This document shows positions 46,390 through 64,000 of a stretch of 64,000 bases of DNA, one piece after another. Position numbers and translations under genes: made by a program. The DNA lies in the IMG/VR virus record IMGVR_UViG_3300044695_004869; one strand, 5' to 3'. This DNA comes from a virus (lineage: Duplodnaviria; Caudoviricetes). Under the pieces are notes generated by a model that worked only from the letters and a program-made list of their open reading frames with translations, made no database searches and had not been told where the DNA came from. Position 1 is the first letter of the stretch, and each line of letters starts with the position of its first letter.

Positions 46390-48453
46390 ATGATTGAATT
46401 TCAAGACGAAAACGAAAAAGGAAAAAAGAAACCAGAAAGTAGTGGGGGAACTCCTGTTTTGGATAACTTTAGTAAGGATTTAATTAAAATGGCAGAAGAA
46501 GGGAAATTAGATCCCGTAATCGGTCGTGAGAAAGAAATCCTACGAATTGCTCAAGTTTTATCAAGACGTAAAAAGAACAACCCTATTATTATTGGTGAAC
46601 CAGGAGCTGGTAAAACAGCTATTGTTGAGGGATTAGCAATGATGATCTATAACGGGGATTGTCCTAAAAATTTGGTTGATAAACGAATTGTATCTTTGGA
46701 TATTAATTCAATTGTTGCAGGTACCAAATATCGTGGTCAATTTGAAGAACGTATGAAAGTTATTATTGAAGAGTTACAAGCAAACCCAAATATTGTTATC
46801 TTTATTGATGAGATTCACACAATGGTTGGGGCCGGTAATAGTTCAGGATCTTTAGATGCTTCTAATATCTTCAAACCGGCGTTATCTCGTGGAGAAATTC
46901 AATGTGTCGGAGCAACAACTTTGGATGAATACCGAAGACATTTTGAAAAAGACGGAGCATTAGAGAGACGTTTCCAAAAAGTGATTGTAGATCCTTCTAC
47001 CAAAGAGGAAACATTTGAAATCCTTAAACAAAGTAAATCTAAGTATGAGGAACATCACAAAGTTAATTATACTGACGAGGCTCTTTTGGTTTGTGTTGAA
47101 CTAGCTGATCGTTATATTACGGATCGTGAATTCCCTGACAAAGCATTTGATATTTTGGATGAGGTTGGCGCAAGAATGCAAATTGACATCAAGTTACCTG
47201 AAGTAATTGAGAAACTTAAAGTTGAAGCTCAAGACATTAAGAAAGAAAAACTTGAGGTAATTAAAAAACAAAATTACGAGCAAGCGGCTGAGTTACGCGA
47301 TAAAGAACGTACCGTATTGGCTAACCTTGAGATGGAGAAGAAAAAATTTGAAGAGTATCTTAGAGTTAGTAAACGTAGTATTCCTGAAGAATTGATTTAT
47401 GAAGTTGTTTCAAACATGACCAAAATTCCGGTTTCAAAATTAAACTTGGATGAGAAGAATACGTTGGTTAATTTGGAATCATCATTATCATCTACAGTAA
47501 TTGGTCAGGAAGAAGCGGTTATGAAAATCTCCAAATCTATCCGTAGAAATCGTGTAGGTATTAAGGACCCAAATCGTCCAATCGGATCGTTCATTTTCTT
47601 AGGATCAACAGGTGTTGGTAAAACATTCTTGGCTAAACAATTGGCGAAAGAAATCTTTGGTAACGAAGAAAACTTAATCCGTGTTGATATGTCTGAATAC
47701 CAAGAGAAACACACGATCTCAAGATTAATTGGTTCTCCTCCAGGATATGTGGGTCACGAAGAAGGTGGACAACTTACCGAACAAGTGAAAAACAAACCTT
47801 ACTCTGTTATCTTGTTTGATGAGATTGAGAAAGCAAACAAAGACATTTTCTCAACACTATTACAGATGTTGGATGATGGTCACTTAACTGATGGTTTAGG
47901 TAGAAAAATTAACTTCAAAAATTGTCTAATCATTATGACATCTAACATTGGAGTTAAAAAACTACAGGACTTCGGTGCTGGTGTTGGTTTCAAAAGCAAT
48001 AGTGATATTGTTAAAGAAGAACACAAACGAGATATCCTCAAAAAAGAATTAGGTAAGTTTTTCGCACCTGAATTCCTTAATCGTATTGATGATGTTATTA
48101 TCTTCAATTCTTTGAAAAAAGAGAACATTGATAAAATTGTTAAGTTGGAGATTGATCGTTTAATGAAACGATTGACCAAAATGAAATACAACTTTACTTA
48201 CGAACCAACGGTTATTGACTTGATCTCTAAAGTTGGGTTTGATGAAACGTTTGGAGCTCGCCCACTAAAAAGAGCACTACAAGATAAAGTTGAGGATCTA
48301 ATCTCAGAAAAAATACTTCTTAATGAGGTTGTTGAGGGAACTGAATATATGTTATTAGTAAAAGACGGTGAGGAGATAGTAATTGAAACCCGTACGGTTC
48401 AAGAACCAAAGAAACGTGGTAGAAAGAAGAAAGAGGATCAACCCTCAATCTAA
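46390..48453 (+). CDS. clpC: ClpC/ClpA-family AAA+ unfoldase lacking the N-terminal Clp_N domain
   Basis: Two Walker sets ([12 protein letters not shown]; [15 protein letters not shown]), UVR-like M-domain [15 protein letters not shown]; the protein starts just before D1. Confidence 0.85.
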
Positions 48454-49347: not shown

Positions 49348-50745
49348 TTATTTTAATATACCAACTATTCTTTTGATTTGTTCAAATAATTCGTATTGGG
49401 TTTCAATTCTTTTTAGATCTTCAAAATCTACAGACCTTTTTTGTTCCCGTTCATCACTCATGTTATTTCTAAAAGTAACAATGATCTTATTTGTTCCAGG
49501 ATCAATTTTATTTATTTTGAAAAATGTGTTCTCATCTGTTTTAACTGGTATCCATTTATCAAAACCATATTCTTGATCAATCTTTTGTTGTAATTCTATG
49601 AATTCATAAAAATTAACAAATCTTTCATCTTCTTCGTATTTCTCAATAATTTTATCTAATTTATCGGAAACATAAGTTTGATAAGCCTCATATCCCTCAT
49701 TATTCCAATCAGGACAATCACCATTATATCTTAGTTCACCCCAATTACCTCTATAGTTATTTCCATCAAATTTATCAATTAATCCTTTTAATAGACCACC
49801 AAGATCAACGTCTTCAGATTTTAGTTGTTTATACCACGTTAAAAGGACCCCTACGGTTGACTCATATTTATATGCTAATGATTTTTGTTTAATACCAAAT
49901 TTAACAAATGGATTATCAAGTTCAGATCTTATTTCATCCCTTGCATTATTGTATATACAGTTTTCCCATTCTGACGCATATTCATCCACAACCCTATCAA
50001 CGAAATCGGAGTCAATTTCAATTGCCAATTCTGATATTTTTTTTGTGTCAGTAATGTCAGTAGAAGGAAAAAATGTTCTAACGATATTAATCAATTTTTC
50101 TTTATTCTGATCATTAAACGCATACTGGAAAAAATCACCTTCACTCCAATCTTCAGTATATCTATAATCGTCATAATCAACGTTTGAATAGTCAGACATA
50201 TAATATCTCCATTCATAGATATCATCACCGTCAAGATCAAAAATATTTAAAAAATCTTCATCATCATTAAACTCAATAACAACAATTGAATTATTTGGGT
50301 TACTACGATTAAATTTGATTTCACCTATGATCTTATCTCCACCATTTTCACTCCATCTTGGTTCATACCCATTATAAACACTTTTTAAGAATTCATATGT
50401 TTCACCAAATCTTATTATTGGGTTTAAAACTTTAACCGATTTAGGGAAGTATTTTTTTAGATCGTCAGCATTTGCAAATCCATTTCTATCGTACCCATAT
50501 CTTACAACACTTGCATCCTGATTATCTCTATTATGAATAGAGAATACTTGAACATCAGGATCAGTACTAATTAAAAAATACAAATCACCGTCTCTGAAAT
50601 TATCATCCCAACTTTGACTATATAAATCCCCACCAAAATAAAATGCAGCATCTTTAGATAATACCTTTACTATCTTTAAATTTTCGTCTTCACTAACAAT
50701 TTCTACGTCACCAGATTCGTATGGATTATATTTCCCGTAATTCAT
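49348..50745 (-). CDS. Hypothetical acidic protein
   Basis: Start moved to ATG 50745, after TATTTATT; the longer track start would overlap the tmRNA. Confidence 0.6.
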   Translation of the reverse strand: MNYGKYNPYESGDVEIVSEDENLKIVKVLSKDAAFYFGGDLYSQSWDDNFRDGDLYFLISTDPDVQVFSIHNRDNQDASVVRYGYDRNGFANADDLKKYFPKSVKVLNPIIRFGETYEFLKSVYNGYEPRWSENGGDKIIGEIKFNRSNPNNSIVVIEFNDDEDFLNIFDLDGDDIYEWRYYMSDYSNVDYDDYRYTEDWSEGDFFQYAFNDQNKEKLINIVRTFFPSTDITDTKKISELAIEIDSDFVDRVVDEYASEWENCIYNNARDEIRSELDNPFVKFGIKQKSLAYKYESTVGVLLTWYKQLKSEDVDLGGLLKGLIDKFDGNNYRGNWGELRYNGDCPDWNNEGYEAYQTYVSDKLDKIIEKYEEDERFVNFYEFIELQQKIDQEYGFDKWIPVKTDENTFFKINKIDPGTNKIIVTFRNNMSDEREQKRSVDFEDLKRIETQYELFEQIKRIVGILK

Positions 50746-50824
50746 ATAAAATAAATATCCTAAATGCTTGGAATATTGTTTTTTTGTATTATCTTTGTAT
50801 TTATAAATTAGTTCTTTAACATAT

Positions 50825-51222
50825 GGGGGTAACTTGGAATCGACTGACATAGTTGGTTATTCGGGGCACGCAGTGAGAGGGTTCCTATCACTTTAATCTA
50901 TGGAGTCAACAATTAGACGGCAACGTTCTAGACAAAATGGCGGCAATCGGTCTTATCCGTGAAGACGCTGCGGTAGTAGCCTAACAGTTAGGAAACACCA
51001 ATCGGGTCGGTGGACATACAACCTAGGAACAGAAGTCCCTACAAAGATGTGGTTTCTATCGTAAAAGGAATAAGTGGAGGATTAGTTCTCAGTAAAACGA
51101 ACCACTTTAAAAATAAGGGAATTGTGAGATTTCGGAACATTAGATTAAATGTTGACCTAAGCGTGTAGTCCTTAGTAGTCAAGATGGACAACACGAGGGT
51201 TCGAATCCCTCTACCTCCACCA
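50825..51222 (+). ncRNA. ssrA: tmRNA
   Basis: 5' GGGGGTA pairs with 3' TACCTCC-ACCA including G3-U; 5' TCGAC motif; T-arm GAGGG-TTCGAAT-CCCTC; tag ORF at 50919-50984; convergent with smpB. Confidence 0.93.
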
Positions 51223-51225
51223 ATT

Positions 51226-51253
51226 AAACCTCATCTAACGATGGGGTTTTTTT
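51226..51253 (+). terminator. Terminator after tmRNA
   Basis: AAACCTCATC-taac-GATGGGGTTTTTTT. Confidence 0.8.
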
Positions 51254-51317
51254 ATGCGGTAAAATTATAGATTAGTGTTGTATGATTATTATATTTTAGA
51301 GCACAAAAAAAGAGGTA

Positions 51318-51752
51318 TTAATTACCTCTTTTAATATCACGATCAATATCTCTTAATTTGATCGATTGTCGTTTATCGTAAAGTTTCTTACCACGAGCCA
51401 GAGCGATCTCAATTTTGATTAGATCCCTATCATTAAGGAATAAACGATAAGGAATTATTGTTAAACCATTTATTAACTGATTTTCCAAATTACGTAACTC
51501 TCTATTCTTAAGTAAGAGTTTACGATCTCTTATTGTTTCATGTGTTGACCCATATCCATAATCAGTTATATTCATACCTTTGATGTATAGCTCCCCATTG
51601 TTAAAATAACAATACCCTTCAGAGATGGACGCTTTACCCATTCGGATCGCTTTCACTTCTGACCCCAAAAGTTTTATACCGGCAATTTCTACCTGAATAA
51701 ACTCATATTCAAATTTAGCCTTCTTGTTGATTATGTTTACAGATTTTTTCAT
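51318..51752 (-). CDS. smpB: SsrA-binding protein SmpB
   Basis: NKKAKFEY, AGIKL.GSEVK.IR, RKLLL, LTIIP..L and GKKLYDKR motifs; start moved to ATG 51752. Confidence 0.95.
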   Translation of the reverse strand: MKKSVNIINKKAKFEYEFIQVEIAGIKLLGSEVKAIRMGKASISEGYCYFNNGELYIKGMNITDYGYGSTHETIRDRKLLLKNRELRNLENQLINGLTIIPYRLFLNDRDLIKIEIALARGKKLYDKRQSIKLRDIDRDIKRGN

Positions 51753-51767
51753 GATACAAATATAAAC

Positions 51768-60112: not shown

Positions 60113-60251
60113 TAACCCCAGTGGGAATCGAACCCACCTTGTAAACTACTTGTAATGTTTGCTTAAACCTTTCGCTCCAATCCTAGTATTAAGGAGTGTT
60201 TAACCAATTTACCATCATTTACCCACTCATAGATTACTCTAATATGGGGTC
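60113..60251 (-). ncRNA. Expanded tRNA-like RNA (139 nt)
   Basis: Acceptor GACCCCA/TGGGGTT, T-arm GTGGG-TTCGATT-CCCAC, internal D-loop-like TGGTAAATTGGTTAAAC and extra hairpins. Confidence 0.6.
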
Positions 60252-60257
60252 ATATTG

Positions 60258-60327
60258 TGGACACTGTGGGAATCGAACCCATACGATCTGATTGCAAATC
60301 AGTCGACCTGCCGTCGGCATCAGGCCC
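60258..60327 (-). tRNA. Atypical tRNA-Ala(TGC)
   Basis: Loop TTTGCAA, G3-U70, bulged acceptor stem and shrunken D-arm. Confidence 0.6.
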
Positions 60328-60337
60328 ATAAAAAAAA

Positions 60338-60527
60338 ACAAATCTTCCGTGATCACCACGGGTTTAGATTTTACCGATGGTTTGTTCCCCATCACCTGTT
60401 ACGTGGCCACGTAGAGCAGGGTCCATTACAGAGTACCTTGGGACATTCAAACTCTCCGTAAAGGTTGCGATCCTATGAGAGCCAAGGTTCCTTTCATCCG
60501 CGCTAATCGGACTTCTGTAAGATTTGT
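60338..60527 (-). ncRNA. Structured ~190-nt RNA in a tRNA spacer
   Basis: 9-bp closing stem ACAAATCTT/AAGATTTGT with nested TTACAGA/TCTGTAA, CCTTGG/CCAAGG, CTCTC/GAGAG, GATGG/CCATC and CCGTG/CACGG helices. Confidence 0.6.
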
Positions 60528-60532
60528 TTTTG

Positions 60533-60605
60533 AGCGGGAGACGAGATTCGAACTCGCGACCTATAGCTTGGAAGGCTATAGCTCTACCAACTGAGCTACT
60601 CCCGC
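60533..60605 (-). tRNA. tRNA-Gly(TCC)
   Basis: ATAGC-CTTCCAA-GCTAT; U73. Confidence 0.93.
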
Positions 60606-60611
60606 TTATTG

Positions 60612-60692
60612 TACTGACGGTTGGATTCGAACCAACGTTTTAAACTTACCGCTACAGGCATAGATGATATAAGCATCCACTGGTACGTCAGC
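60612..60692 (-). ncRNA. D-armless tRNA-like RNA (possible TAT anticodon)
   Basis: Acceptor GCTGACG/CGTCAGT, hairpin GGATG-CTTATAT-CATCT, T-arm GTTGG-TTCGAAT-CCAAC. Confidence 0.6.
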
Positions 60693-60762
60693 ATTTAAGG
60701 GTGAACACGGGCCTAGCAAGCCGTCTTTCAGGAAAGGCCCTTCCACCTATTCACCCTTTTAG

Positions 60763-60835
60763 TAGCGGGAGCAGGACTCGAACCTGCGATCTCGGCTTAT
60801 GAGACCGAGCGGATAACCATCTTCCACATCCCGCG
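60763..60835 (-). tRNA. Initiator-type tRNA-fMet(CAT)
   Basis: C1/T72 mismatch; TCGGT-CTCATAA-GCCGA, with the third G-C pair replaced by U-G. Confidence 0.8.
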
Positions 60836-60853
60836 ATATATTATTTTACTCTG

Positions 60854-60937
60854 TACTCGAAGCGGGAATCGAACCCGCACTCCCGTTGGGGAACAGCATT
60901 TTAAGTGCTGCGTGTCTACCAATTCCACCACCCGAGC
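60854..60937 (-). tRNA. tRNA-Leu(TAA)
   Basis: CAGCA-CTTAAAA-TGCTG; long variable arm. Confidence 0.93.
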
Positions 60938-60955
60938 AAATAATCATTACCATTA

Positions 60956-61016
60956 TGTCAAAGAACCTTTTTCTTTTGTTCCACAAAGATAAGTAGAATT
61001 TTTCAATCCGACAAAC
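60956..61016 (-). promoter_or_regulatory. Bacteroidota-type promoter plus boxA for the tRNA operon
   Basis: TTTG, 19-nt spacer, TATCTTTG (60991-60984), then GGTTCTTTGACA (60967-60956). Confidence 0.75.
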
Positions 61017-61052
61017 ACTTTGTAAAATATTTTTTAAAAAACTTATAAAATC

Positions 61053-61083
61053 AAAAAACCCACCTCTTTTGGAGATGGGTTTC
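61053..61083 (-). terminator. Intrinsic terminator
   Basis: AAACCCATCTC-caaaa-GAGGTGGGTTTTTT. Confidence 0.8.
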
Positions 61084-61104
61084 AAATTTTGTATATACAG
61101 AAAT

Positions 61105-61173
61105 TTACACCATCTCCTTGAAGGTTGTCTCAGCTAAATCGCCCCCTATCAATAATATGTGTAAATTTTTCAT
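61105..61173 (-). CDS. 22-aa micro-ORF
   Basis: MKNLHILLIGGDLAETTFKEMV between TATTTATA (61195-61202) and a terminator. Confidence 0.4.
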   Translation of the reverse strand: MKNLHILLIGGDLAETTFKEMV

Positions 61174-61234
61174 TTGCGTTTTTTAATGTTTTGTTATAAA
61201 TATACGATACTTTTTAAAAGTGTCAAGTTTTTTT

Positions 61235-61573
61235 TTAAGATACATAAATGTTTTTTGGAAAATCCCCAAATACAAATATAGTTACATCACATAACCATAG
61301 TTCCAAATTATATTCAATCCCCTTATATGTTTTCATTAAATACCAAGATCCTTCACCAACTTCAGGGGCTTCTCTTAAAAATTCTAATCTATTGGATCCA
61401 TCAAAATCTTCTGTTGACAATAAAACTTTAATATCGTTTTCACCCTGAGATACAATATCTAACATTATATCGGCACCTGATACCATTGCCAGATCTGCCC
61501 GACTTCCTTCCCATTCGGGCAGATCTACATACCACGTCCCCTCGTCTTTATAGAATTTAAATTGTCTTAACAT
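61235..61573 (-). CDS. Hypothetical protein (DUF6717-like)
   Basis: WYVDLPEW......L.MV.GAD.MLD and LWLC.V..FVFG..P motifs. Confidence 0.55.
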   Translation of the reverse strand: MLRQFKFYKDEGTWYVDLPEWEGSRADLAMVSGADIMLDIVSQGENDIKVLLSTEDFDGSNRLEFLREAPEVGEGSWYLMKTYKGIEYNLELWLCDVTIFVFGDFPKNIYVS

Positions 61574-61588
61574 ATTTACCTTTATTTG

Positions 61589-61662
61589 TACCCCCAACAG
61601 GACTCGAACCTGTAAAATTGTGATCCTAAATCACACGCGTATACCTATTCCGCCATGAGGGC
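61589..61662 (-). tRNA. tRNA-Leu(TAG) with short variable loop
   Basis: TGTGA-TTTAGGA-TCACA; variable region only ATTTT. Confidence 0.8.
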
Positions 61663-61671
61663 ATTTTGTTG

Positions 61672-61742
61672 AGGTCCCGATTGGATTTGAACCAACGTAA
61701 ACGGTTTTGCAGACCGCCTCCTAACCACTCGGACACAGGACC
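61672..61742 (-). tRNA. tRNA-Cys(GCA)
   Basis: GCGGT-CTGCAAA-ACCGT; U73. Confidence 0.93.
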
Positions 61743-61743
61743 A

Positions 61744-62196
61744 TTAACGGCAGTGATGATCTGCCGCTTTAGTTGCTATTTGATTGTCGGGTTTAATGTT
61801 TGTCTTGTAACCAAGAGACATTGCCCACCCAACAACAGGTTGAACAAGTTTTGAACTGAAGTATTTTTCTTGACTATTGTAATCTAAGTCAATTTGAACT
61901 TGAACTTTTACTTTTTGGGTTAACCATTCCGCAACCTCAATAGAATAGTCCGCTTCATTCCATAATCTCGTCCACTTATCCTTAATTTTTTTCATTTTTT
62001 GTTTATGTAAGATGTAATGAACACCTCTGTTACCATATCGGTAAGCAATTACGGTAACGTATACCGTACTTCTTCTGTGGTTCTGTGAATCCGTTCCAAT
62101 ATGAACCTCAACATATGGACATTCGTTTAAAACATCCAAGGTGTGAGATACCACATCTACCGATTCGCCTTGTACCGTTCTAAATACTCTGTTCAT
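61744..62196 (-). CDS. RNase H-like protein (YkuK/DUF458 family)
   Basis: HIGTDSQ, RLWNEA..S, IDLDYN and A..AAD motifs. Confidence 0.7.
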   Translation of the reverse strand: MNRVFRTVQGESVDVVSHTLDVLNECPYVEVHIGTDSQNHRRSTVYVTVIAYRYGNRGVHYILHKQKMKKIKDKWTRLWNEADYSIEVAEWLTQKVKVQVQIDLDYNSQEKYFSSKLVQPVVGWAMSLGYKTNIKPDNQIATKAADHHCR

Positions 62197-62211
62197 ATTA
62201 TTTGGTTTTTG

Positions 62212-62284
62212 TGGACCGGGAGGGAGTCGAACCCCCGACGCTTGGATCTTCAGTCCAACGCTCTACCAACTGAGCTACCAGTCC
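62212..62284 (-). tRNA. tRNA-Phe(GAA)
   Basis: TTGGA-CTGAAGA-TCCAA. Confidence 0.94.
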
Positions 62285-62788
62285 TTACTTTATTTGGAAT
62301 GCGTGTTTCACAATTCTTTTTCTTTTAACCGAATCTTCGTAATTACCGTGAACAATTCCATCTTTAATTGTAAATGCGTGACGGTTAACAAGTATAAAAA
62401 ATGTCCCAATTGGATTTTCTTTTATAAATGTTCCAACGGTCATTTTTCTATTAATTTTTTTACCGTTTATTTTAACCTTATACTCCAAAGAGTACACCAC
62501 ATAATTCCTCATGGTTGTTTTGGTTCCAATTGGTTTAATCTTCTTATGGTTTATTTGAGTTTGTTTTTTAGCCAACTCAACCATTTTAAAAACGGTACCG
62601 TAAGTACCTTTACGATCTACTCTCCCAAATTTTTCTTTAACATATTTGTGAGCCTTATCATAAGGGACCTCAAATGATGTTGCGAAAGCCCTTACAACAC
62701 AATCGTTAGTTTCTCTTTTTGCAATTTCGGAGTCCTGATAACCTATGACCCCAACGTGACTTGAACAGTATGGTAAATTTGTTTTCAT
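62285..62788 (-). CDS. Hypothetical phage protein (NDCVVRA motif)
   Basis: Start moved to ATG 62788, 4 nt after TATCTTTG; Cys and His (RHAF) could form a catalytic pair. Confidence 0.55.
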   Translation of the reverse strand: MKTNLPYCSSHVGVIGYQDSEIAKRETNDCVVRAFATSFEVPYDKAHKYVKEKFGRVDRKGTYGTVFKMVELAKKQTQINHKKIKPIGTKTTMRNYVVYSLEYKVKINGKKINRKMTVGTFIKENPIGTFFILVNRHAFTIKDGIVHGNYEDSVKRKRIVKHAFQIK

Positions 62789-62900
62789 AAGACAAAGATA
62801 CAAATTTATTTTCAATCTGCCAAATTTAATTTCTTCAGGGAGAACTCGGATGAGGTATCCTAACGGTTGTACCCTCACCACTTGTCTCCCGTCCTATTTG

Positions 62901-62972
62901 CGCGCCCCCAAGAACTCGAATCCTGACCGATGGGTTTGGAATCCATCATGCTAACCATTACACCAGAGACGC
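62901..62972 (-). tRNA. tRNA-Trp(CCA)
   Basis: Loop TTCCAAA; G73. Confidence 0.85.
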
Positions 62973-62982
62973 TTATGTTTTG

Positions 62983-63054
62983 TACCCCCTCAGAGATTCG
63001 AACTCCGACCTGACGCCTTAGAAGAGCGTTGTACTTCCGTTATACGAAAGGGGC
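62983..63054 (-). tRNA. tRNA-Arg(TCT)
   Basis: ACGCT-CTTCTAA-GGCGT. Confidence 0.9.
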
Positions 63055-63058
63055 AAAT

Positions 63059-63212
63059 AAAAGATGATGAATGACTTTATCAGGAATCTGGGATTCGTAT
63101 TTCTACGACGCTTCACACACCATTAGAGAGTTGAGCATTATTCTTATCCTTAGTGTGTACCCTTGCGACACGTCTCTCCACGTCTGTCATTCTACGCTTT
63201 GTATCATCTTTT
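63059..63212 (-). ncRNA. Structured ~150-nt spacer RNA
   Basis: Closing AAAAGATGA/TCATCTTTT, inner AATGAC/GTCATT, CACAC/GTGTG and CGTA-GAAA-TACG. Confidence 0.45.
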
Positions 63213-63213
63213 G

Positions 63214-63286
63214 TACCTTCGGCGAGATTCAAACTCACATCTTACGGGTCGTAACCGTAGGTTCTATTCTATTTAACTACGAAGGT
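63214..63286 (-). tRNA. tRNA-Arg(ACG)
   Basis: TACGG-TTACGAC-CCGTA; acceptor ACCTTCG/CGAAGGT. Confidence 0.88.
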
Positions 63287-63418
63287 ATAAATAGTTTTGG
63301 TCAACCACTCGCATCCCACCAATCTCTTGTATCAAACTTTTTGTAGTACAAACGATTATATCTCCTACGACTCATTCTCAACTCACTTGCCTAAGCCTTG
63401 TCCGTTGTAAACTATTTG

Positions 63419-63492
63419 TGTGTATGATGGGGGTCGAACCCATGACCTCTTGAATCACAATCAAGCACTCTGCCAACTGAGCTACATACACC
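63419..63492 (-). tRNA. tRNA-His(GTG)
   Basis: CTTGA-TTGTGAT-TCAAG; encoded G-1 opposite A73. Confidence 0.88.
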
Positions 63493-63498
63493 ATATAA

Positions 63499-63568
63499 GT
63501 CCCGTATAGTGGTATCGAACCACTCTAAAGTCGGATATGAGCCAACTTTGATCCCTGATCATACGGGA
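63499..63568 (-). tRNA. Compact tRNA with CAT anticodon and reduced D-arm
   Basis: Acceptor TCCCGTA/TACGGGA, D hairpin TGATC-AGG-GATCA, extended anticodon stem around CTCATAT. Confidence 0.6.
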
Positions 63569-63572
63569 GTTG

Positions 63573-63661
63573 AGGAAAGCAGTGGTAACGATCCACAATC
63601 GGTTTCTCACCGATCACATTGTTTAGCAAACAAGTCCCGTCGCCTTCAGGGATTACTTTCC
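63573..63661 (-). tRNA. tRNA-Ser(GCT), atypical T-loop
   Basis: Loop TTGCTAA, long variable arm, T-loop ATCGTTA, U73. Confidence 0.78.
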
Positions 63662-63719
63662 ATAGAGTGTGGTACTCCTGCAGTAGTTGGGGCACCCACA
63701 CAAGTTATTCCCCTTTTTG

Positions 63720-63793
63720 TGCTCATAACAGGACTCGAACCTATAACCTCCGACGTATCAGGTCGGCGCTCTCACCAATTGAGCTATATGAGC
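63720..63793 (-). tRNA. tRNA-Ile(GAT)
   Basis: CCGAC-CTGATAC-GTCGG. Confidence 0.93.
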
Positions 63794-63798
63794 GGTTG

Positions 63799-63870
63799 CG
63801 GACAAGGAAGGACTCGAACCTTCAACCACTCGATTAACAGTCGAGGGCTCTACCATTGAGCTACTTGTCC
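63799..63870 (-). tRNA. tRNA-Asn(GTT)
   Basis: CTCGA-CTGTTAA-TCGAG; G73. Confidence 0.94.
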
Positions 63871-63878
63871 ATTTTTTG

Positions 63879-63948
63879 TGGGAGCAAGTGGAATCGAACC
63901 ACTAAGACGATGTTTTACAGACACGATCAGGACCCTGCCGATACTCCC
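63879..63948 (-). tRNA. Atypical tRNA-Tyr(GTA) with short variable region
   Basis: Loop CTGTAAA, non-standard D-arm, no long variable arm. Confidence 0.65.
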
Positions 63949-63953
63949 TTTTG

Positions 63954-64000
63954 TACACTCTACAGGGATCGAACCTGTGACCTGTTGTATGTAAGACAAC
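63954..64000 (-). tRNA. tRNA-Val(TAC), 5' part outside the window
   Basis: GTTGT-CTTACAT-ACAAC plus T-arm and 3' acceptor strand. Confidence 0.85.

Follow-up and report, generated by a model that had tools for sequence, protein, structure and literature searches.

What does a bacteriophage gain by carrying its own genes for trans-translation, and what becomes of the proteins that such a system would mark with a peptide much longer than is usual? These questions are raised by a 64,000-nucleotide (nt) stretch of DNA (IMG/VR record IMGVR_UViG_3300044695_004869, the whole of which is referred to here as the window) that comes from a large, uncultured, T4-like freshwater phage and in which a gene for transfer-messenger RNA (tmRNA) lies beside one for the protein SmpB. 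The window can be identified as phage DNA because genes for a T4-type portal, a gp23-type major capsid protein and a large terminase, recognised by Pfam searches of the window's proteins, lie nearby and surround the pair. To our knowledge, genome surveys are the only source of information on phage-borne tmRNA and SmpB, and their benefit to the phage has never been tested. A preliminary description of the window, made without database searches, had proposed that the two genes form a complete pair with an unusually long tag, and that this tag might send rescued proteins to a different protease, such as the phage ClpC, or allow them to escape degradation. Here we establish the identity of the two genes, the reading frame of the tag, its conservation, the structure of the RNA and its presence in RNA libraries. 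On balance, we think it probable that the pair is a functional, phage-encoded trans-translation system whose tag is a family-specific degron with an extension.

Identity and structure of the tmRNA

The Rfam tmRNA model RF00023 aligns over its full length (model positions 1-374) with nucleotides 50825-51222 of the plus strand, at 77.4 bits (gathering score 47 bits) and an E-value of 2.5e-28, and thus covers the same 398 nt that the preliminary description had taken to be a tmRNA. That description had named ARAGORN alongside Rfam as a suitable check and here the two programs part company, ARAGORN making no tmRNA call in the window. Because the Rfam match and the homologues described below settle the identity of the gene, we ascribe the ARAGORN result to a problem of sensitivity and not to absence of the gene.

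Relatives were collected by searching IMG/VR with an 18-nt motif from helix 2, outside the tag, which returned at least 120 stretches, 80 of which were examined. ARAGORN calls a tmRNA in 15 of these 80 loci (L200-L279), with several of the calls giving a wrong or truncated tag. Since around four-fifths of the family is missed in this way, surveys of phage tmRNAs that rely on ARAGORN, including the 2020 survey of huge phages, will under-count them, and the extent of phage trans-translation has probably been underestimated as a result.

The ends of the gene could be set in 65 family members, corresponding to 57 unique sequences of 384-420 nt. Every one of the 65 has the acceptor-stem pair G3:U70, the identity element of alanyl-tRNA synthetase, and 37 encode the terminal CCA. 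The tmRNA is under structural selection: when the 57 sequences were analysed with RNAalifold, compensatory changes were seen at 21 of 43 consensus pairs, in the acceptor stem, helix 2, one stem of pseudoknot 1 and the T-arm, with the T-stem showing such changes at all five of its pairs. The pseudoknot 1 stem recovered with covariation is AGUGA/UCACU (alignment columns 51-55 and 67-71). The second stem of this pseudoknot pairs GGUUCC with GGAGUC in the window and AUAUCC with GGAUGU in L002-L004.

Some relatives contain a group I intron (RF00028, 66-101 bits; L204, 12856-13082; L243, 12727-12953; L224, 1942-2158), which starts about 19 nt past the helix-2 motif, at a point within the T-arm region of the tmRNA; L222 looks similar. 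An intron in the T-loop of tmRNA has been reported for Clostridium botulinum, and we know of no report of an intron in a phage tmRNA.

Resume codon and reading frame of the tag

In the window, the sequence UUAGAC (50913-50918) is followed by GGC (50919-50921), 20 further sense codons and UAA (50982-50984). The preliminary description had translation resuming at 50919 to add 21 encoded residues, and this assignment stands. The consensus resume codon of the Rfam alignment falls on the same GGC, and ARAGORN gives the same start and frame in relatives L005 (GNVLDKMETLGLVRESEVTVA), L202, L240, L264 and L265. All 57 unique family members have an A at position -4 and a glycine resume codon at gene position 93-97. 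This A corresponds to A86 of Escherichia coli, which is nearly universal and essential to the choice of frame, selection being lost or displaced when it is mutated (PMC2481249). No version of the gene has an open +1 or +2 frame, stops being present in both.

That translation resumes at some other codon, to give a short tag of the ordinary kind, is highly improbable. For some relatives ARAGORN does report shorter tags that start further on (ATEQVTVA and AKLQAVGLIRTEEVTVA are examples), which might lend support to such an idea, but these calls lie in the same frame and are simply truncated. Resumption in the +1 frame (GCA at 50920) would give an unconserved product of three residues (ATF, ETF, ETS or ATY), the +2 frame also closes early, and conservation of the peptide begins exactly at G1, 4 nt after the invariant A. 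On these grounds the +1 and +2 frames and the later in-frame ARAGORN starts were rejected as resume sites.

Conservation of the tag

Conservation in related phages had been suggested as a check on the tag, and a homologous tag of 21-22 codons is present in 78 of the 80 loci examined. The family has 36 distinct tags, all but two of them 21 residues long. The 34 distinct peptides of 21 residues all have G1 and G11; L12 and A21 are each found in 33, V20 in 30, R14 in 29 and V3 in 28, and a hydrophobic residue is always or almost always present at positions 4, 7, 10 and 13. The tags end in TVA (15 of 36), VVA (8) or AVA (6), these three accounting for 29 of the 36, with just two ending in AA. The tag in the window ends in VVA and so does not have the typical (A)LAA-type degron end, which is usual in tmRNA tags without defining them, the Mycoplasma tag ending in AFA.

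The ratio of non-synonymous to synonymous polymorphism (pN/pS) is 0.57 in the tag frame compared with 0.85 and 1.55 in the shifted frames, and among the closest relatives the numbers of variable columns at codon positions 1, 2 and 3 are 8, 5 and 14. Such patterns indicate that the tag peptide is under selection. A tag of the same type, GNVYNNMEVAGLLATSEVAVA, is encoded in a distant lineage (L321) whose SmpB is 55% identical.

Long tags are also encoded by two other phages with complete genomes. In a 158-kb phage (G187) the tag is 25 residues long and ends in YAVAA. In a 482-kb phage (L320, also G184) a tmRNA at 1501-1903 (RF00023, 101 bits) has a tag of 36 codons that begins GNVI after GUAAAC and ends in LEIA, the longest among those examined.

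SmpB

The smpB open reading frame (ORF) begins with the ATG at 51752 and encodes 144 amino acids, residues 8-142 of which align with positions 3-139 of the 143-position Pfam profile PF01668 (E 1.9e-44). The hinge and tail motif G121 K122 K123 L124 Y125 D126 K127 R128 is invariant across 14 phage and bacterial homologues, with a basic tail of some 16 residues beyond it; SmpB requires the glycine hinge and basic tail to enter the ribosome. With full-length matches to both PF01668 and RF00023, the convergent smpB gene and the complete phage-borne pair of the preliminary description are confirmed. More than 120 protein-database clusters are 79-97% identical to the phage SmpB, most of them 144-145 amino acids long and on contigs of up to 326 kb, and searching IMG/VR with the phage protein recovered 44 loci.

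Directly upstream of smpB, and on the same strand, is a GOLLD RNA (RF02032, 331 bits) at 51838-52249 (minus strand). The same arrangement of GOLLD and smpB recurs in L001-L009.

Presence in RNA libraries

Assembled contigs from four metatranscriptomes, each from a separate study (an estuary, a river and two freshwater sites), match the tmRNA. One of these, 344 nt in length, spans 50874-51213 with four differences. Those of the listed differences that affect tag codons are synonymous: GGC to GGA at 50921, CUU to UUA at 50952 with 50954, and GUA to GUU at 50975. The RNA contigs cover the tmRNA and GOLLD and not 50700-50807 or the smpB gene and spacer at 51240-51779, the uncovered parts being evidence neither for nor against transcription. 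GOLLD RNA is itself covered by contigs from four metatranscriptome studies. With at least 120 IMG/VR stretches, more than 120 SmpB clusters and RNA contigs in four studies, the family is abundant in freshwater and estuarine data.

Likely host and its tags

When bacterial proteins were matched to the phage SmpB alignment, nearly all of the 80 best came from Bacteroidota (42-55% identity), the closest of them at 45-55%. This speaks to the ancestry of SmpB and offers a hint, though not proof, of the host. The Bacteroidota-type -7 motif TAnnTTTG was also considered as an indicator of the host and was dropped since it is not enriched in the window, where 114 copies are found against 105.7 expected and 27 of 100 shuffled sequences reach 114.

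Among 75 genomes of the GTDB phylum Bacteroidota, ARAGORN gave 72 credible tags, all of 8-10 residues and all ending in (L/M)AA; examples are GENNYALAA, GEYNYAMAA, GNTSYAMAA and ADDYSYAMAA. They start at gene positions 90-103, as the phage tag does. Three other ARAGORN calls in Bacteroidota genomes (L126, L168 and L176) have odd starts, at 130-221, and were set aside as miscalls. The phage tmRNA therefore looks like one of Bacteroidota type with a tag some 12 residues longer and with another end. The preliminary description had called the tag unusually long, and this holds against the presumed host phylum, from whose tags it differs both in length and at the C-terminus (21 residues ending in VVA, compared with 8-10 ending in (L/M)AA). 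Its wider premise, that typical tags have 9-10 residues and end in LAA or AA, is sound for the 72 Bacteroidota tags but is not generally so, as longer natural tags are known from Mycoplasma and from the phages Bxz1 and G.

A model for the action of the pair

Charging, ribosome entry, tagging and proteolysis are steps that we infer for the phage pair from its sequence. In the model that we favour, the tmRNA would be transcribed as its own unit and trimmed by host RNase P to its 5' GGGGG end, after which host alanyl-tRNA synthetase would charge it with alanine by way of G3:U70. Bound by phage SmpB, the tmRNA would enter host ribosomes stalled during infection on messenger RNAs (mRNAs) that are broken or lack a stop codon. 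Translation would then resume at the GGC at 50919, adding alanine and the 21 encoded residues, and the ribosome would be freed at the UAA. The tag itself would serve as a family-specific signal, with a hydrophobic N-terminal half (V3, L4, M7 and I10), a middle made up of the invariant Gly11 followed by leucine, a hydrophobic residue, mostly arginine and an acidic patch, and a hydrophobic V-x-V-A at the C-terminus. Most likely it would still direct its product to a Clp- or Lon-type AAA+ protease, in which case the extra 12 residues might provide a second determinant, for recognition or for binding an adaptor, much as the extended tag of Mycoplasma does. That the pair might help ribosomes to recycle when defences cut mRNA or transfer RNA (tRNA), as the preliminary description suggested, is plausible.

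Several points weigh against this model of a functional pair with a degron-like tag. A pN/pS of 0.57 denotes constraint that is moderate and not strong, and constraint on the tag region at the level of RNA is inseparable from constraint on the peptide. Posterior probabilities in the Rfam alignment are low over pseudoknots 2-4, a region whose length varies among relatives and in which RNAalifold, which cannot model pseudoknots, recovered just two local hairpins. The RNA contigs were matched at 90% likeness or more, so that some belong to relatives, and they show neither strand nor RNA ends nor expression level. The presumed difference from the host tag is drawn from the ancestry of SmpB only. 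Lastly, the terminal Ala-Ala is the initial determinant for the RKH loops of ClpX (PMC9601184) and the phage tag does not have it; recognition by host ClpX is therefore uncertain.

Fate of the tagged proteins

What might degrade the tagged proteins if host ClpX does not? A possible partner is encoded nearby, in the form of a ClpC-like double-ring AAA+ unfoldase (class I Hsp100) of 687 residues, for which the Pfam families AAA, AAA_lid_9, UVR, AAA_2 and ClpB_D2-small are all matched. Pfam finds no Clp_N domain, the N-terminal Clp-repeat domain that binds adaptors, in this protein, the first AAA domain beginning at about residue 43-66. A loop with the sequence GAGVGFKS contains VGF, which we take, by motif alone, to be the (I/V)G(F/L) loop through which such unfoldases dock with ClpP. 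ClpC-like homologues are encoded in all 28 of the larger related contigs and, in eight of these (G159, G162, G163, G165, G166, G173, G174 and G177), a true ClpP (PF00574, E 1e-52 to 1e-59) is encoded alongside. One of two near-complete genomes, a 96%-complete one, has ClpP.

It could be, then, that the long tag is a private address that directs proteins to this N-domain-less unfoldase, acting with host or phage ClpP, and not to host ClpX. A distance of 2.4 kb separates the tmRNA from the ClpC-like gene, whose product combines both AAA+ rings with the UVR motif and the VGF loop, and the presence of this gene in all 28 contigs, with ClpP (E around 1e-57) in eight, accords with the idea, as does a tag without the LAA end used by ClpX. 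Against this, the 28 contigs belong to one syntenic lineage and so amount to roughly one observation, making their co-occurrence weak evidence, whilst the 100%-complete relative G170 has no ClpP. The two features are also found apart: the complete long-tag phages G184 (482 kb, 36 residues) and G187 (158 kb, 25 residues) have no ClpC-like gene, and G185 and G186 encode the ClpC-like protein and SmpB with no tmRNA above the cut-off. We therefore regard a dedicated route to the phage unfoldase as unlikely, though as something more than an outside chance.

Alternatively, the phage pair might rescue ribosomes without destroying the products, its main effect being to recycle ribosomes and the tag being neutral, stabilising the product or labelling it for sorting or sequestration. 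Of the 36 distinct tags, 34 lack the canonical (L/M)AA end and, according to work cited in PMC3985003, it is release of the ribosome and not proteolysis that is the essential function of tmRNA in Neisseria. A neutral tag, however, would not be expected to keep its length (21 residues in 34 of 36), G1 and G11, and V-x-V-A across lineages whose SmpB proteins are 55% identical, and hydrophobic -VA ends are strong degrons in enterobacteria. The LVA variant of the E. coli tag, for example, gives the fastest degradation in Salmonella and does so in part independently of ClpXP (PMC11003136), so that the hydrophobic -VA end of the phage tag is compatible with degradation. For these reasons, rescue without destruction appears improbable to us, and the escape from degradation entertained in the preliminary description is not favoured. 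It is more doubtful still that the pair interferes with the host by competing with or blocking host trans-translation, drawing away host SmpB, EF-Tu or ribosomes as a decoy would and not tagging productively. Mycobacteriophage DS6A does encode an RNA with little beyond the tRNA-like domain, and molecules of this kind inhibit tmRNA (PMC4131195), but the phage studied here keeps the whole tmRNA, with the A at -4, a conserved, uninterrupted tag frame that ends in a stop codon, pseudoknot 1 and a dedicated full-length SmpB, and we consider a decoy very unlikely. A functional pair with a degron-like tag is accordingly the explanation that we prefer. Because the tag is sharply defined, conserved and unlike that of the likely host, it allows a clean test of whether a phage tag is a degron, and for which protease.

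Comparison with known systems

The pair described here is a well-supported new example and not a new kind of system. Both tmRNA and SmpB have been reported, beside many tRNAs and other translation genes, in huge phages (Al-Shayeb et al. 2020, Nature 578:425, PMC7162821). Like the phage in the window, these are large uncultured phages with both components. The survey was based on ARAGORN, however, and left the tags undescribed (PMC7162821), whereas here the tag is defined, conserved and extended.

Phage tmRNAs have also been catalogued for the Bxz1 group and phage G (Hudson, Lau and Williams 2014, PMC4131195). We find by ARAGORN that mycobacteriophage Bxz1 encodes a 25-residue tag ending in ALV and Bacillus phage G a 13-residue tag ending in QVA. 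As in the window, a one-piece tmRNA with a non-canonical tag is located in or beside a phage tRNA cluster, but in sequence these tags bear no relation to the GNV...GL(I/V)R...V-x-VA pattern of the present family and the hosts are from other phyla. Bxz1 (25 residues) and phage G (13 residues) thus show that public data already include long phage tags that are non-canonical; our literature search found no paper that discusses them.

Among bacteria, the one-piece tmRNAs of Bacteroidota are the closest in form, many being about 390-405 nt long with a resume codon near position 95 that often begins Gly-Asn or Gly-Glu (GNTSYAMAA and GENNYALAA). They differ in the tag, which has 8-10 residues and ends in (L/M)AA in Bacteroidota but has 21 residues and ends in VVA, TVA or AVA in the phages. 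Closer in length is the tag of Mycoplasma which, as described in PMC3985003, is much longer than that of E. coli, ends in AFA, has several recognition determinants and has co-evolved with Lon. The likeness lies in an extended tag with a non-LAA end; Mycoplasma differs in being a bacterium that has lost ClpXP, and its tag has no sequence similarity to that of the phage.

A broader proposition is that phage tmRNAs as a class encode 'orthogonal' tags, longer than those of the host and with V or VA ends, so that rescued products are handled differently, in this case by the phage ClpC-like protein with, in some phages, ClpP. Examples may include the family described here (21-22 residues), the 482-kb phage (36), the 158-kb phage (25), Bxz1 (25) and phage G (13). 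We hold this to be doubtful, and offer it as speculation. Were it true, the phage would control both the recycling of ribosomes and the fate of truncated proteins during infection.

Arrangement of the locus

The features of the pair and its immediate surroundings are collected in Table 1.

Table 1. Coordinates of the tmRNA, smpB and associated features in the window
Feature	Position	Strand	Evidence
One-piece tmRNA, 398 nt, CCA encoded	50825-51222	+	Rfam RF00023, 77.4 bits
Acceptor stem, 5' strand, GGGGGUA	50825-50831	+	Pairs with 51212-51218 (UACCUCC)
Pseudoknot 1, 5' of the tag	50872-50907	+	Both stems marked in Rfam alignment
Frame-setting context UUAGAC (U at -5, A at -4)	50913-50918	+	A at -4 in 57 of 57
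Tag frame: GGC resume codon, 21 codons (GNVLDKMAAIGLIREDAAVVA), stop TAA	50919-50984	+	Rfam; ARAGORN in relatives
T-arm, 3' acceptor strand, discriminator A and CCA	51195-51222	+	Direct reading; T-stem covariation
Terminator-like hairpin and T-run, directly 3' of tmRNA	51226-51249	+	Hairpin scan
smpB, 144 amino acids and stop	51318-51752	-	Pfam PF01668, E 1.9e-44
Terminator-like hairpin overlapping the end of smpB	51308-51332	-	Hairpin scan
ClpC-like double-ring AAA+ unfoldase without Clp_N, neighbour and possible partner	46390-48453	+	Pfam

The window has a G+C content of about 31%. The tmRNA (plus strand) and smpB (minus strand) are convergent with 95 nt between them, and a scan for terminator-like hairpins found seven sites in 2.4 kb against 1.7 expected. 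When the region 50825-51752 was compared by BLASTN with 50,697 GenBank phage records no match was found, and no cultured relative of the phage is available.

A scan with the sigma-70 consensus found no promoter ahead of the tmRNA, and sites were fewer than in shuffled sequences. Single copies of TAnnTTTG are located upstream of the tmRNA (50790-50797) and of smpB (51757-51764). Between the first of these copies and the 5' end of the tmRNA is a sequence, GTTCTTTAACA (50811-50821, plus strand), that resembles the boxA antitermination element of rrn operons.

Upstream of the tmRNA is a 500-amino acid ORF with no Pfam family (49348-50850, minus strand) which, if translated from its first ATG, would overlap the first 26 nt of the tmRNA gene; a start at an internal methionine about 35 residues further in would avoid the overlap. 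Towards the end of the window, at 57632-64000 on the minus strand, is an array of at least 17 tRNA genes (ARAGORN lists 17 in the window), and two weaker tRNA-like matches to Rfam are seen at 57711-57812 and 63954-64000.

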